Below are positions 58,492-64,000 of a stretch of 64,000 nt of DNA, piece after piece. Every line of letters starts with the position of its first letter. The stretch's first letter is position 1. This stretch comes from a virus. The stretch lies in IMG/VR virus record IMGVR_UViG_3300045988_086138. The stretch is one strand, 5' to 3'. The notes beneath the pieces were generated by a model. The model was not told where the DNA came from, did not search any database, and saw nothing but the letters and a program-made list of their open reading frames with translations. Position numbers and translations under genes: made by a program.

Positions 58492-58520
58492 ATTGGATTA
58501 CAATATCAAGTCTTTGCTTA

Positions 58521-58553
58521 TATAAATGATTATAAATGATTATAAATGATTAT
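58521..58553 (+). repeat. tandem repeat (TATAAATGAT) x3 plus partial unit, ending in the start codon
   Basis: Three perfect 10-nt units at 58521-58550. ATG 58546 lies in unit 3. Confidence 0.95.
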
Positions 58554-59256
58554 GGAAGTATTCGATTTAACTAGAGGTACCACAACTGGTACCGTACGAG
58601 TACCTGCTAAGGCAGGTGAAACAGCTCAATTTAAAATTAGGTCCACAAAGGCAAAGAAGGTAAATGGGAAATCCCAAACCCCAGAAAGGATTAACTTTAC
58701 TTACCCTTATGCTAATCAGGCCGTTGTAAGAGCCTCTTGGGAAGAAGACCCATCTAATGCAGAACTGTATATAGTTACCTTATTGGTTATACGTACAAAT
58801 ACTGCTAACACCGAAGATAATACCACGGTACCTTTCACTCAGAATGAATCAGGTAATGTATTAAATCTAACTGTGGTACAAGAAGCTGCCGCAATTACCT
58901 ATGAATATTTCGTTATAGGTAAACCTCAAGATGGTATCATGGTAAATGATCCAGCCACTTTAGTTTTTGAATCTCATTTTGGTTCAACTAATAATTCGAT
59001 AATATTCCAAGTGTTGAAGGTGGGATACCAAGGGAGTACCATTATATCTCAAGAGATTGTAGGTAGTACCGATGGTTTTACCGCTTATAGTAGACCTATT
59101 AATGATGGCTTTAGGTTAGGTAGAGAATCTGGAGTAGATGAAACTTCAATCTCTACTATTGGTGGGTCATCTGGTAAATGGTTCGGTACAATCAATGTAA
59201 GTTTCACTTATGGTAGTATTAGTGGTAGTAATGATATAGAACTTTATCAACGTTAG
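58546..59256 (+). CDS. BACON-like (Ig-fold) domain protein, paralog 1
   Basis: N-terminal module ending NTTVPFTQNESGNVLNLTVVQEAAA, similar to the next two genes. Confidence 0.5.
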   Translation: MIMEVFDLTRGTTTGTVRVPAKAGETAQFKIRSTKAKKVNGKSQTPERINFTYPYANQAVVRASWEEDPSNAELYIVTLLVIRTNTANTEDNTTVPFTQNESGNVLNLTVVQEAAAITYEYFVIGKPQDGIMVNDPATLVFESHFGSTNNSIIFQVLKVGYQGSTIISQEIVGSTDGFTAYSRPINDGFRLGRESGVDETSISTIGGSSGKWFGTINVSFTYGSISGSNDIELYQR

Positions 59257-59260
59257 AATT

Positions 59261-59995
59261 ATGGAAATCAAAACAATCGATTTTAGAGCAGTGGGGGGGG
59301 GGCAAACCACCTTAAACCTTACATTTCCTTATACACAAGGTATAGAACCTATTGAAGTAACTTCTCTAAAGGTTCGAAAGGTCAATGGAAAAGAAGACGG
59401 TAGCTCTGTTCAAGTTGGCTATGTTATAGATGAGCCTCCTTATGGATATATAATAGGTCAGACTATAGATGGATTCGAGATACACTATAAAGAAAATTCT
59501 AGTAATGATAGTAGGAACGGTGTCATTACCCTTACTCAAAATGAATCAAACAAACAATGTAAGGTAAACTTTACTCAGAAAGCAAATCCTATACGACGTT
59601 ATAAGGGCTTGACTATGAAAAGTTATGGTAACTCTCTTGAGAGTCGTGATACTTATGTAGAGTTTGATAATGATACCAAGTACTTTAAATGGGCCGGTTC
59701 AACTAACGGTCTTACTATGTATATGAGAAATTCTCAGGGATTCGAAAAATCATTTAAGAGTTTCATATTACATACTACTCAGATTAATAACTTTGGGCAA
59801 TACAGTCCAAGCTATATATCCTTCTATGGAGAAAAGAACTTTGTAAACGGTACCTACTCAGCCTCTCTTACAGACCATACAGACCTTGTATTTAAACTAC
59901 CTTTGTCATCTGGCCTATGGGAACCTTTTAGTATCAAACTATGGAGTGATCAAGGTGGAGATGACTACTCACTGAGTTTTGAACAATTAACTTAA
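59261..59995 (+). CDS. BACON-like (Ig-fold) domain protein, paralog 2
   Basis: IDFRAVGGGQTTLNLTFPY...SRNGVITLTQNESNKQCKVNFTQKA fits the BACON-type ...R.g.itl.Q...v.Q pattern. Contains a G10 tract. Confidence 0.55.
   Translation: MEIKTIDFRAVGGGQTTLNLTFPYTQGIEPIEVTSLKVRKVNGKEDGSSVQVGYVIDEPPYGYIIGQTIDGFEIHYKENSSNDSRNGVITLTQNESNKQCKVNFTQKANPIRRYKGLTMKSYGNSLESRDTYVEFDNDTKYFKWAGSTNGLTMYMRNSQGFEKSFKSFILHTTQINNFGQYSPSYISFYGEKNFVNGTYSASLTDHTDLVFKLPLSSGLWEPFSIKLWSDQGGDDYSLSFEQLT
59293..59302 (+). repeat. poly-G tract (10 G) in codons 11-14 of paralog 2
   Basis: GCA GTG GGG GGG GGG CAA, in frame in this sequence. Confidence 0.9.
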
Positions 59996-60001
59996 AAATA
60001 T

Positions 60002-61014
60002 ATGGAAAATTATAATCCCCCCCCCTAAAACTGGCCTTTGATGCCAGGGGAGCTACATCTCAAACTATAAATGCTCCTTATGAAGGAACCAAAACAACCC
60101 TTACCATTTACTCTTATAGAGATACGAAAGTAAATGGTAAGGTTACTGGCAGTGACCTAATAGACTTCACTACTAAACTTACATCTGATGGTAATATCTC
60201 AGATTCTTGGATTTTTACCAAGAAAGCAGTAAATGATGCGTTGTCATATAGCTTGGAAATAGAGATAAGCCCAAATTTAGGTGGAGCTAGAACTGGTACT
60301 ATAACTCTTACTCAGGTTTCATCTGGAAAAACCATAACCATTAATATCTCTCAGGCAGCAGGCATAAGGATCCAAGAATATGTGTTTACTGGTCCACCTA
60401 TTACGAATTTCATGTTCTTAGCAGCTGGAGGTACAGAAACTGTAGAAGTAGAAAGTTATGCTCTATATTCTGATGGTTCTAAAGTAGCTGAAGTACCTTA
60501 TGTAGATTCAAAACCCACTTGGTTAACAGTTGAAATTACTCCAAAGAATCAATATGTTGGTAATACTAAATATTTAGTTAAAATGACAGTTGCTCCAAAT
60601 ACTGGTGAAATTCGTAATGGAACTCTGACTTTAAGTCAGGGAGTAGTGGAAGGTAAATCCCTTTCATTTACTTTGAGTCAGGGAGAACAAATTACAGATA
60701 CCGATATAACCTTAACACTTACAAATTTACCAATTAATGGAACTGGTGCTCTATTTGGAGAATTCGAAGTACCGAGTAGTAATTCTGCAATGGGGTATTT
60801 TGCCTTTAGTATCTTGGGCAGTACTCATAGCTTCACATATAGAAGATCTACCGGTTTACAAGTAAATTTATCTACTCCGGGAGAAACCGATATAGCCTAT
60901 GTTAATGATATAATAAGACTCTATATTTGGGATGATACTCGAGCTATATGGGTATATAGAACCCAATTTAGTTTATCAGGTAGAGATGAAACTATTTTCG
61001 TAACAGAAGAATAG
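60002..61014 (+). pseudogene. BACON-like two-module protein, paralog 3; frame broken at a C9 tract
   Basis: ATG 60002 reads MENYNPPP then TAA. The frame of ORF 60241-61014 is open back to 60016 and encodes LKLAFDARGATSQTINAPYEGTK..., similar to the N-terminus of paralog 2. That ORF is called only from an internal TTG. Confidence 0.6.
60017..60025 (+). repeat. poly-C tract (9 C by frame arithmetic against ORF-track coordinates)
   Basis: A run length of 7 or 10 would join ATG 60002 to the long ORF. Confidence 0.8.
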
Positions 61015-61030
61015 GGGTCTTAGACCCCTA
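61012..61030. terminator. bidirectional hairpin between convergent genes
   Basis: TAGGGGTC-TTA-GACCCCTA, an 8-bp stem. Confidence 0.6.
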
Positions 61031-61040
61031 TTCTTAATAT

Positions 61041-61232
61041 CTACAAGAGTTTATATCTTATAAACTTATAAAATAAGTATATTGGGAACAATGGAAGAAC
61101 TAGCCATACCGAAATAAATAATACCAGAGAATGGAGTTTATGGGTTTGTGGTAAAAAATCCAGGCAAGCTTTTACAAAGAACATGGTAAATGGTAAGCAT
61201 ACCAAATAGATGATAACGATTACTGTAGTCAT
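61041..61232 (-). CDS. small membrane protein
   Basis: 63 aa with two hydrophobic segments. ATGA overlap with the upstream gene. Confidence 0.5.
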   Translation of the reverse strand: MTTVIVIIYLVCLPFTMFFVKACLDFLPQTHKLHSLVLFISVWLVLPLFPIYLFYKFIRYKLL

Positions 61233-61627
61233 TGTTCCTCCTTGAAATACTTGTTAATAATCTTAGTGAGCTTCTTATCGAAATCTATCATTACATCTAA
61301 AGCTTCTTCCTCTCCAATACTTCTTATCTTTTTATCCAAGAACTCCATATTTCTTTTAATGGAGAAATAGGCTTTATAAGCCAAGAACCCCTTTTCATTT
61401 TCCTCAGTTAAAGGTAAAACCTTACCATCCTTTCCATCTAACCTTGAATAAGTATCATCTGGTCCAAGTGTTCTTGCAACCTTTACCCGATTACTCAATG
61501 TAGCATACCCACCTTTCTTATCGATAGACTCTACCGTTACCTTCTCCATGATTTGTCTCCCATCAAGTAAGAAGAAAACTTCATCACCTTCCCTGAGCTT
61601 TTTGATTTCTTTCTTTTCTTTTTTCAT
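61229..61627 (-). CDS. hypothetical protein
   Basis: 132-aa ORF. Confidence 0.5.
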   Translation of the reverse strand: MKKEKKEIKKLREGDEVFFLLDGRQIMEKVTVESIDKKGGYATLSNRVKVARTLGPDDTYSRLDGKDGKVLPLTEENEKGFLAYKAYFSIKRNMEFLDKKIRSIGEEEALDVMIDFDKKLTKIINKYFKEEQ

Positions 61628-61638
61628 ATCTGTATTAA

Positions 61639-62172
61639 TTAGAAATTTTCTTTATGCAAAGATAATAAATAATTTCTTATATTTATTGCATTATCAATCT
61701 TATTTTTAATAAATTCATAGGTAATGTTTCTACGGTCCTGAAGTTCTTTGAATTGTTCAGGGGATAGAAATATACCATTAATTTTAAAAAGTCCTCTTAG
61801 AGGCTTCGGTATATCTCCTTGATGACTGGCGTTATTAGTCTGTACTAAAGAGAAGCTCTTATGTTTTTCATCAAGTATAGCAGCGTAGGTCATAGTTGGG
61901 TTTAACATAGCATGATATAGACCACTAAACCCAGTAGGAATAGTTAAAATAGTACCCGGTACCTTGACTATCCAATGGTCATACTTCGGAGTTATCAGAG
62001 CAACTTTGTTCTGTTTTAATAACTCCTTGTCATATTCTACTCGTTTATGCCAAAAAGCACAATGAAAACAGAGTTGGTCAGACTTCATCAAGAGCGGAAT
62101 TTCATAAGTAGGCTCATAATCCTCTAAATTAATGGGTTTGCCACATATGTGGCATCGATTTTTCTTGTCCAT
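61639..62172 (-). CDS. hypothetical zinc-finger protein
   Basis: CHICGKPI ... CFHCAFWH, two CxxC pairs. Confidence 0.5.
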   Translation of the reverse strand: MDKKNRCHICGKPINLEDYEPTYEIPLLMKSDQLCFHCAFWHKRVEYDKELLKQNKVALITPKYDHWIVKVPGTILTIPTGFSGLYHAMLNPTMTYAAILDEKHKSFSLVQTNNASHQGDIPKPLRGLFKINGIFLSPEQFKELQDRRNITYEFIKNKIDNAINIRNYLLSLHKENF

Positions 62173-62281
62173 ATTGCATTATTTATAAATTATATATGAT
62201 AATAGAACCTTGAAACATCCTAAAAATGGGTTATAAGCAATACTTTCGTTACTAAAATTGAACCATTAAAACTGATAGGTT

Positions 62282-62878
62282 ATGGATAAATTAACAAATG
62301 AGATGATTAAAGACCTTGCTAATCGCTTAGGTCTAGAACCTGCTCTCTTAAAAGCTGTTCAAATCGTAGAAGCAGCTGGTAGAGATGGATTTTTAGCTGA
62401 TGGCAGACCTCAAATTCTCTTTGAAGGTCACATTATGTACAAAGAATTTCATAAAAAGTTCCCAGAAAGAGATTTGGGGTACCTTTGTAAGAAATTTTCT
62501 ACGGTATTTTATCCAAAATGGGATAAATCTAAGTATCTTGGCGGTGTACACGAGTATAAAAGACTCGAATTAGCCCAAGAAATTGATGAAGAATGTGCAT
62601 TAAAGTCTGCAAGTTGGGGTATGTTCCAGATTATGGGCTTTAATCACAAACTTTGTAGCTGTAATGATGTCTATGATTTTGTTCATAAGATGTCTGAATC
62701 TCATGAAAAACAACTAGAACTGATGTATTATTTCATGAATACTTCTGGTTGTTTGAAGAACCTCAAGGAAAAGGATTGGGCAGGCTTCGCAAAGAAGTAT
62801 AATGGTCCTGGTTATGCCCAAAATGCTTACGACCAAAAATTAAGAAATGCTTACGAAAACTTTAAAAACAAGTTATGA
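62282..62878 (+). CDS. endolysin, N-acetylmuramidase family
   Basis: LEPALLKAVQIVEAAGRDGFLADGRPQILFEGHIMY ... SWGMFQIMGFNH ... FAKKYNGPGYAQNAYDQKL matches the phage muramidase family. Confidence 0.8.
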   Translation: MDKLTNEMIKDLANRLGLEPALLKAVQIVEAAGRDGFLADGRPQILFEGHIMYKEFHKKFPERDLGYLCKKFSTVFYPKWDKSKYLGGVHEYKRLELAQEIDEECALKSASWGMFQIMGFNHKLCSCNDVYDFVHKMSESHEKQLELMYYFMNTSGCLKNLKEKDWAGFAKKYNGPGYAQNAYDQKLRNAYENFKNKL

Positions 62879-63318
62879 AAAGATGTCATTTTAATAGCTG
62901 GGTAGCAAAACTGCTTTTGTTCCCAACTTATACAGCCGTTACTCTACTGTATAACTCTTTCTTCAAGAAAGATGAAGATGAATACTCTATGGATGATATA
63001 AATCACGAGTGTATTCATCAAGTACAACAAATGGAGTGTAGTGTTATTGGATTAGCACTGGGATTAGTATTATGTGGATTATTCAACTTATCTCTCTGGT
63101 GGATAATAATCTTGGGTCTTGGATTCTTCTATATCTGGTATGGTATAGAATATCTTATAATCCTATGTTTTGCTAAATGGGACAAACAGAATGAGAGATA
63201 TCATGATGTAAGTTTCGAGGAAGAAGCTCATAACAATGATGGGGATTGGGACTACCTTGAAGACCGTAAACCATTTGCATGGATTAAGTACATCAAATTG
63301 AGAAGTTATAAGAAATGA
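62875..63318 (+). CDS. membrane protein with HExxH motif
   Basis: INHECIHQVQ is followed by hydrophobic segments (VIGLALGLVLCGLF, WWIIILGLGFFYIWYGIEYLIILCF). ATGA overlap with the endolysin gene. Confidence 0.45.
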   Translation: MKRCHFNSWVAKLLLFPTYTAVTLLYNSFFKKDEDEYSMDDINHECIHQVQQMECSVIGLALGLVLCGLFNLSLWWIIILGLGFFYIWYGIEYLIILCFAKWDKQNERYHDVSFEEEAHNNDGDWDYLEDRKPFAWIKYIKLRSYKK

Positions 63319-64000
63319 GAAAGTTAAGGGTATTGGGAGTGTGCGCTGGACAGGGTGCACTCCTGTTCCCTTTTAGGGAAAATTTGCTAGGGAATATAGA
63401 AATAAGAGGAGTATTCCATACTCCGGGTGAAGAACAATGGAAGTTGAATTTTGGTGATATACCATTTTATAAAGGGTTCTGTTTACAAGAGTTCGATAAG
63501 AAAATTGATATAATTATTTCATCTCCAGATTGTGGTGCATCTTCAGTAATGAGGTTATCCAAAGTAAAGGAATTAGGTAATCCCAAAGATAACAGAAGTT
63601 TAAATCTAGTAATTGCTGCAATATTAGAGTATAAACCCAAGATATTTCTTATAGAAAATCTGCCTCGTTTACTATCTTTGCTTCCTAAAGATTTCTTTGA
63701 GGAAACGTTTAAGGACTATAAATTAATTTTTCACGAAAAGTCAGTTTCGGACTATGGAAATTCTCAGACTTCAAGGAAGCGTTTAGTTATCATTGGAGTA
63801 CATAAAAAGACCGGTAAGAAATACTTGAATGCTTTTAATGAAGTATTCCAAGTAAATACTCCAACAATTACTAGAAATCTACTAAAACCACTAACATTCT
63901 CTCAAGAAAACAATATTAATCAAATCCCGTTTATGAGTAAAACTCTGGCAATGTATGATTACAGGAAACTCCCTGAAAAGAAAAATCTTACTGTTGCAAA
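63314..64000 (+). CDS. DNA cytosine-5 methyltransferase-like protein (3' end outside window)
   Basis: Manual translation is open to the window end. Motif I VLGVCAGQGAL, motif IV-like ISSPDCGASS, motif VI IFLIENLPRL, motif VIII YGNSQTSRKRLVIIG. Confidence 0.65.

Follow-up and report, generated by a model that had tools for sequence, protein, structure and literature searches.

What does it mean when a run of nine cytosines separates the start codon of a phage gene from an otherwise open reading frame? This question is raised by paralog 3, one of three neighboring genes for BACON-like proteins (paralogs 1 to 3, referred to here as the cassette) in a 64,000-nucleotide stretch of viral DNA, IMG/VR record IMGVR_UViG_3300045988_086138 (the window). 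The initial annotation of this stretch listed four explanations, namely, a homopolymer sequencing error, slipped-strand phase variation with this molecule in the OFF state, transcriptional slippage, and −1 ribosomal frameshifting, and chose none of them. Comparing the locus with its relatives, we found tracts from C7 to C12 between identical flanks and ahead of intact gene bodies, which supports slipped-strand phase variation with the molecule OFF and disfavors the other three. The C9 tract is probably a genuine slippage-prone ON/OFF switch of paralog 3, that is, a contingency locus, which stands at an OFF length in the window; from the sequence comparison, we put the probability of this reading at roughly 0.75.

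The C9 tract and the reading frame of paralog 3

All features of the window described here lie on the plus strand. Direct reading of the sequence shows that the ATG of paralog 3 (60002-60004) is followed by GAA AAT TAT AAT, the C9 tract (60017..60025, codons 6 to 8), and a TAA stop codon (60026-60028), so that the gene as written encodes only the 8-codon stub MENYNPPP* (60002..60028). The ATG shares its frame with the upstream paralog 2 and lies 6 nt past the stop codon of that gene. The body of paralog 3 is found in the −1 frame relative to the ATG (60016..61014), with 329 codons after the tract. This frame is closed by a TAA at 60013-60015, is open from 60016 to the stop codon at 61012-61014, and has its earliest ATG, GTG, or TTG codon, a TTG, only at 60241, while the 72 codons upstream of it (60025-60240) encode LKLAFDARGATSQ.... 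A tract of either 7 or 10 C would join the ATG at 60002 to the body and yield a fusion of 337 amino acids. The initial annotation had described the stub, the long frame, its late start codon, and the tract length in the same way, and all of this was borne out. The resemblance it had noted between the N termini of paralogs 3 and 2 is weak but real (pairwise BLASTP E value of 4e-5).

A scan for G/C runs of at least 7 nt returned just two in the whole 64 kb, which has a G+C content of 34%: the C9 tract and a G10 tract (59293..59302), which was absent from the initial annotation and is the sole G run of this length in the window. If nucleotides were independent and identically distributed, the expected count in the window would be 0.003 for C runs and 0.018 for G runs of at least 9 nt. 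Both tracts are also built from rare codons, given that CCC accounts for 13.8% of the proline codons and GGG for 16.1% of the glycine codons. The G10 tract, a putative second hypermutable tract, covers codons 11 to 14 of paralog 2 (..RAVGGGQ..). According to the list of open reading frames (ORFs) and their translations, paralog 2 (59261..59995) encodes 244 amino acids (MEIKTIDFRAVGGGQTT...) and is in frame, or ON, in the window, where an extra A (CAAACC versus CAACC) plus an AGT insert compensate for the tract length. The position of paralog 3 that matches the G tract of paralog 2 reads ARGATS. Since the two tracts occupy nonhomologous codon positions, they arose independently.

The arrangement around the C9 tract also formally suits programmed recoding, in which full-length protein would be made from the C9 allele by −1 frameshifting on C CCC CCC or by slippage of RNA polymerase. 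This heptamer fits the pattern X XXY YYZ, the stop codon of the 0 frame (TAA) is adjacent, and a 5-bp hairpin (60031-60047) begins 5 nt downstream, with a z score of −2.08 for the fold of 100 nt. However, this hairpin is weak and lies within constrained coding sequence, and a shift after codon 8 would give no useful alternative product. An all-C heptamer is not known to be an efficient frameshift site. As for the polymerase, some slippage during transcription can occur as a side effect of long homopolymers, but the documented bacterial sites for it are A/T runs, whereas the tract here is made of C; low-level slippage may accompany the C tract.

Tract lengths in related phages and the proposed switch

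Our comparison set comprised 26 records from independent metagenomes, which correspond to 21 haplotypes: the only two related contigs that a scan of IMG/VR gave, four records from a scan of JGI/ENA metagenomes, and, for the most part, Logan/ENA records obtained by exact-protein look-ups. Ten of the loci (L011 to L020) were fetched through an exact neighboring protein and hence blind to the state of the tract, while several further loci were fetched through particular protein variants.

Between identical flanks, the tract of paralog 3 takes six uninterrupted lengths. Two of them place the gene in frame (ON), namely, C7 (L022/L023) and C10 (L003/L008/L015, L012, and L016), and four place it out of frame (OFF), namely, C8 (L005 and L006), C9 (window/L011, L004, L010, L019, and L020), C11 (L013, L014, and L025/L026), and C12 (L029). 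In other relatives, the tract is interrupted by substitutions and in frame, so that the gene is ON: CCCCATCCCC (L007 and L017, the latter with a break further along the gene), CCCCTCCCCC (L009), CCCCCCCCCT (L018), CCCCCCCTCC (L027), and CCCCCACCCCCCC (L024). The tract of paralog 2 is likewise variable, with G7 and G9 being OFF and G8, G11, and G14 being ON; G10 is OFF in L018 and L022/L023 but ON in the window and L012, by virtue of a nearby 1-nt change that restores the frame. All four ON/OFF combinations of paralogs 2 and 3 are represented. Of the 10 loci collected blindly, 5 have paralog 3 OFF, 4 have it ON, and 1 has it broken outside the tract, while 2 have paralog 2 OFF.

The same variation is visible at the protein level. 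The N termini of 86 close homologs diverge exactly at the tract (PPPL, PPL, PPLL, PPSL, PHPL, PSPL, LPPL, PLPL, and PPPPL), and gene calls among the homologs that are truncated at the 5′ end (251 to 257 amino acids) match OFF alleles. The tract is kept even in lineages whose proteins are only 50 to 65% identical. The OFF alleles retain an open body of 323 to 330 codons in paralog 3 and of 229 codons in paralog 2, with the exception of L004, whose C9 tract is combined with an in-frame internal deletion that leaves an open body of 143 codons.

These alleles bear directly on recoding. About half of the relatives have the gene directly in frame, meaning that the out-of-frame layout is not conserved, and several carry interrupted tracts in which the slippery site is abolished. 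Moreover, the two OFF frames are populated about equally (C8 or C11 in five haplotypes, C9 or C12 in six), so that one directional shift would be unable to rescue both; a scheme using only the frame that a −1 shift can rescue was rejected on the same ground. Taken with the weak hairpin, this makes programmed recoding a very improbable source of the full-length protein. A side observation concerns the other frame. In a diverged C11 lineage (L025, 371-410; L026, 697-736), a TTG that overlaps the stop codon of paralog 2 (TTGA) is in frame with the body of paralog 3; it is the gene-caller start of P0053 (MKNIWKITIPPPLRL...), and P0082 has a similar start in an alternative frame. Judging from this arrangement, a second class of tract lengths might be expressible by termination-reinitiation.

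Given that long G/C homopolymers are error prone and that the fused reading frame is perfect, one could suppose that the true tract is C10 or C7 and the gene intact, with C9 a product of sequencing or assembly. Against this stands an independent ENA assembly (ERZ652382, NODE_13_length_85741_cov_105.489; L011), which has about 105× coverage and is identical to the window over the 3.9 kb compared (within 59240-64000), the C9 and G10 tracts included. This contig probably represents the genome of the window itself or its source; among the IMG/VR contigs scanned, the window sequence was absent. The exact paralog 2 protein of the window recurs with the same neighboring genes in five contigs, C9 is found in four other haplotypes, and C8, C11, and C12 come from different studies and assemblers. 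Three records with identical haplotypes (L003, L008, and L015) have the same tract lengths in separate assemblies, showing that the tract calls are reproducible.

As a control, we compared 56 homopolymers of at least 5 nt between 55.5 and 64 kb across the loci. The A/T runs of at least 5 nt changed length once in 366 comparisons, and all 9 comparisons of a C6 run showed the same length, whereas the C9 tract was changed in 8 of 13 comparisons within the same set of loci; other homopolymers are thus stable across the very assemblies in which the tract varies. Close relatives illustrate this well. L003 and L014, with 10 substitutions between them in 3.9 kb (0.26%), nevertheless have C10 versus C11 and G8 versus G14, and just one other internal indel, of 2 nt in an A run. 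The gap between G8 and G14 is too large for a miscall, and we regard an error in the tract as a highly unlikely explanation. In a neighbor-joining tree of the downstream 1.7 kb (21 taxa), at least 13 changes of tract state and at least 6 ON/OFF switches are required.

The locus thus combines several sequence features of a contingency locus: a repeat in the 5′ part of the ORF that is over-long, varies in length within stable surroundings, and toggles the frame modulo 3. We infer that slippage in replication generates this variation, reversibly and at a high rate within populations. In the mechanism that we propose, a single C or G would be gained or lost when the strands slip as the phage DNA is replicated. 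Lengths of 3n+1 (7, 10, and 13) would turn the C tract ON, and lengths of 3n+2 (8, 11, and 14) would do so for the G tract in its common flank context, while at any other length translation would end after 8 to 30 codons, leaving the gene OFF. The tract would encode a disordered proline or glycine tail ahead of the first β-strand, in which in-frame changes of length would be tolerated. With two independent switches, four expression states would be available, the molecule of the window being in the state with paralog 2 ON and paralog 3 OFF. Stochastic expression of these proteins would then amount to bet-hedging.

Several points weigh against this reading. The evidence throughout consists of assembly consensus sequences compared between different samples, and some of the identical haplotypes may be reassemblies of the same reads. 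The exact allele of the paralog 3 body found in the window was seen only OFF, with C9 in up to five contigs and with C12 in one. Furthermore, the uninterrupted C tracts are ON in 4 of 15 haplotypes, close to the value of 1/3 for an unselected random walk. This last figure would be expected if the tracts were a nonadaptive mutational hot spot, at which dispensable genes drift in and out of frame or decay without any selection for bet-hedging, and which is the main remaining rival. The fluid gene content of the cassette fits the same idea, with deletions (L003, L004, and L009) and chimeras (L024, P0044, and P0048), as does a second frameshift in L017. On the other hand, the bodies of the OFF alleles are otherwise intact (more than 320 codons in paralog 3 and 229 in paralog 2), and two independent tracts of rare codons occur at different codon positions of adjacent paralogs and nowhere else in the 64 kb. 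A pure tract is retained down to 50 to 65% protein identity, although point mutations would soon break an unselected run, and 11 of 17 haplotypes have paralog 2 ON, a share that clearly exceeds 1/3. On balance, we hold drift at a mutational hot spot to be unlikely, if less so than an error or recoding, and the slippage switch remains the favored explanation.

The frameshift of L017 deserves a closer description. In this locus (reverse strand), the tract CCCCATCCCC is locked in frame, yet a 1-nt deletion about 155 nt into paralog 3 (GACCT-ATAG versus GATTTAATAG in L007) breaks the gene. This could be a sign that the OFF state is selected for once the switch is disabled, or it could be simple decay.

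The cassette, its proteins, and the phage

The products of the three cassette genes have in common a BACON-like domain of about 120 amino acids at the N terminus, and no further paralog besides these three was found in the window. The label “BACON-like,” given to paralog 3 by the initial annotation, is upheld by Pfam: the fused protein matches PF13004 in two stretches, with an E value of 1.3e-12 and 48 bits against a cutoff of 25 bits. Paralog 2 scores 18.9 bits with the same model, below the cutoff, and paralog 1 does not match it, so that these two are tied to the BACON family only through their BLASTP paralogy (paralog 1 versus paralog 3, E value of 9e-7 over 111 amino acids; third pair of paralogs, E value of 0.005). 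None of the cassette proteins has a signal peptide, and PHROGs contains no family for the three paralogs or for the small ORFs next to them.

For a structural view of paralog 3, we used an AlphaFold model of P0001, a natural ON protein that is 97% identical to the window product. With a predicted local distance difference test (pLDDT) score of 86.6, the model is all-β, with Ig-like/BACON domains in succession and a β-sandwich at the C terminus. The tract-encoded residues 1 to 7 are disordered in it, which explains why versions with PP, PPP, and PPPP all exist. Foldseek searches of PDB and BFVD returned nothing more specific than generic Ig-like arrays and, from gut phages, unnamed BACON proteins, without a clue as to a position in the virion.

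Based on this domain type and on the literature on BACON/Ig proteins, the paralogs could be virion-exposed adhesins that bind mucus or epithelium or a host glycan, and the switches may thereby vary the adhesive decoration of the virion. The cassette sits outside the recognized structural module, and virion location and function are read from the domain type alone, which counts against this part of the interpretation. The full proposal, namely, that two slippage switches toggle paralogous BACON/Ig-like virion adhesins in a highly prevalent group of gut phages and produce up to four virion types per burst, is accordingly tentative, and we would sooner bet against it than on it.

The gene that leads the cassette in the window, paralog 1 (58546..59256; 236 amino acids by ORF call and translation), is without a homopolymer tract, and several relatives either lack it or have it in truncated or fused form. 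The content of the cassette is highly fluid in general: L003 (5229-5300) and most other members of its clade lack paralog 1; in L004 (4699-5240 and 5984-6441), paralog 1 is truncated and paralog 3 lacks the internal BACON domains; and paralog 2 is absent in L009. Chimeras join the 5′ end of paralog 2 or paralog 1 to the body of paralog 3 (L024, P0044, P0048, and P0085), and in L024 the junction (737-800) falls at the tract itself.

Ahead of the first cassette gene lies an element conserved in relatives, CAAGTCTTTGCTTATATAAA (58507..58526), which is found with at most 1 to 2 mismatches upstream of whichever paralog leads the cassette in 23 loci besides the window. From this placement, we presume that it marks the promoter-proximal region. 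The 10-bp sequence ATAAATGATT is repeated three times in tandem at 58521-58551, upstream of and overlapping the start of paralog 1, and each extra copy brings an out-of-frame ATG (58526 and 58536). As a third common switch, this repeat was ruled out, because it is confined to the haplotype of the window and L011; all other loci have a single copy of ATAAATGATT or another leader sequence.

At the other end of the cassette, direct reading of the sequence reveals a GC-rich hairpin, GGGGTC-TTA-GACCCC, followed by a T-rich stretch (61014..61035). This is presumably a terminator, although a scan with a terminator consensus did not flag it. Between lineages, the sequence after paralog 3 changes while a hairpin stays (GGGGTCTTAGACCCC versus AAGGGGTATAATACCCCTT; L002, approximately 1585-1612). 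An A run beside the hairpin, just past the stop codon of paralog 3, is A7 versus A8 in two close relatives (L013 versus L014).

The window encodes a tape measure protein, a baseplate wedge, a DnaB-like helicase, PolA, a UvsX-like recombinase, and an SbcC-like protein, and it belongs to a contractile-tailed phage, in which small ORFs of unknown function follow the replication genes. An endolysin and a DNA methylase are encoded downstream of the cassette; neither a reverse transcriptase nor an invertase was seen next to it, and no tRNA genes were found in the 64 kb. Of the 53 ORFs of at least 150 amino acids, only 4 have AGGA, GGAG, or GAGG at positions −18 to −4, and the upstream regions are 77% A+T. 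Such a scarcity of Shine-Dalgarno motifs agrees with a host that makes no use of them, such as a member of the Bacteroidota, and the BACON domain points the same way.

The related contigs are 84.7 to 88.5 kb long and come from human-gut metagenomes. In the index of the assembly collection, a neighboring protein of 132 amino acids appears in 220 blocks, indicating that the phage is common. Its size of about 85 kb, gene order, and habitat agree with the proposed “Flandersviridae,” whose genomes have a median size of 85.2 kb and are laid out as a contractile-tail structural module, a replication module with DnaB, primase, and PolA, and then about 20 kb of ORFs of unknown function, and whose hosts are Bacteroides or Parabacteroides (Benler et al. 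2021, PMC8008677). By these features, the phage resembles the “Flandersviridae,” and its host is probably a member of the Bacteroidota, an assignment taken from that work. Among 50,697 GenBank phage records, megablast found no match to the cassette, and tblastn with paralog 3 as the query found one weak match, to an unannotated gut-metagenome contig, and no Campylobacter phage. A sequence-pattern scan of GTDB genomes gave no match and hence no pointer to an isolate or a host.

Relation to known systems and significance

For BACON/Ig proteins of the Flandersviridae, a role in attachment to host cells or to glycans of the mucosa has been predicted (Benler et al. 2021, PMC8008677), and BACON/Ig proteins of Flandersviridae-like myoviruses, placed on phage K1F, made it adhere to epithelium and favored its retention in the gut (Apjok et al. 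2026, PMC13370021). Homopolymers and phase variation go unmentioned in both papers, and a search of the supplementary text of PMC13370021 for peptides of the three paralogs found none. Like these adhesins of Flandersviridae-like and crAss-like phages, and like Hoc of phage T4 in the model of bacteriophage adherence to mucus (BAM), the cassette proteins are modular BACON/Ig proteins with shuffling and small variants, carried by abundant gut myoviruses of about 85 kb; unlike in those cases, an adhesin function is proposed for them by analogy.

Flandersviridae-like myoviruses are among the most prevalent phages of the human gut, and BACON/Ig-mediated adherence to epithelium and mucus has only recently been shown (PMC13370021). 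If our interpretation is true, virions of one phage population would differ in their surface, and hence in gut retention, host targeting, or immune visibility, in a way that is heritable yet reversible, and up to four virion types could differ in how they adhere to mucus or epithelium or in how they bind the phase-variable capsules of their Bacteroidota hosts. Such a system would be the first phase-variable case of adherence in the BAM model and the first contingency system based on simple sequence repeats (SSRs) described for a Bacteroidota phage, extending phage contingency loci beyond Campylobacter and T-even phages to the dominant gut phylum. On the practical side, it would mean that gene callers routinely shorten these genes (252 to 257 amino acids instead of 336 to 337) and that tract length is a simple read-level marker for the mining of longitudinal metagenomes that are already available.

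As a precedent, the system closest to this one is that of Fletchervirus, a group of Campylobacter phages with hypermutable polyG tracts of 7 to 11 nt in receptor-binding genes (Sorensen et al. 2021, Cell Rep 35:109214, as summarized in bioRxiv 10.1101/2025.10.21.683753 and PMC10877375). Both systems have G/C homopolymers of about 7 to 11 nt inside phage genes for surface interaction (a role proposed by analogy here), with several tract genes per genome. In the same summaries, frame switching in Fletchervirus yields phenotypically mixed progeny, as we propose for the present phage. The two differ in that ours belongs to an unrelated phage lineage with another host phylum, without sequence homology in the tblastn search of 50,697 phage records, and in that the switched proteins are small BACON/Ig-like arrays outside the tail module, known from sequences and only presumed to bind receptors.

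Contingency loci have also been described in phages T2 and T4 (agt and rIIA), where slippage at short repeats within ORFs causes reversible frameshifts, for which bet-hedging was proposed (Gomez, Barrick & Waters 2025, bioRxiv 10.1101/2025.10.21.683753). The T2/T4 repeats are runs of at least 6 nt scattered through many genes, whereas here two exceptionally long G/C runs, the sole ones in 64 kb, are located at the 5′ ends of paralogous adhesin-like genes. The locus also resembles bacterial SSR phase variation in Campylobacter, Haemophilus, and Neisseria, where a poly-G/C tract is likewise found near the 5′ end of the ORF of a surface protein, the state follows tract length modulo 3, and some strains have interrupted, “locked” alleles; the difference is that the present tract is borne by a virus. 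The Bacteroidota, the likely host phylum, are known mainly for phase variation by inversion and not by SSRs. Stochastic heterogeneity of the virion surface within a population is also known from the diversity-generating retroelement (DGR) of Bordetella phage BPP-1 and the invertible tail-fiber segment of phage Mu, which rely on retro-homing mutagenesis and site-specific inversion, respectively, unlike the repeat slippage proposed here. The class of mechanism is therefore already known; such a switch has not previously been reported for this phage group, and what is new is the phage group, the host phylum, the class of protein, and the tandem pair of independently switched paralogs.

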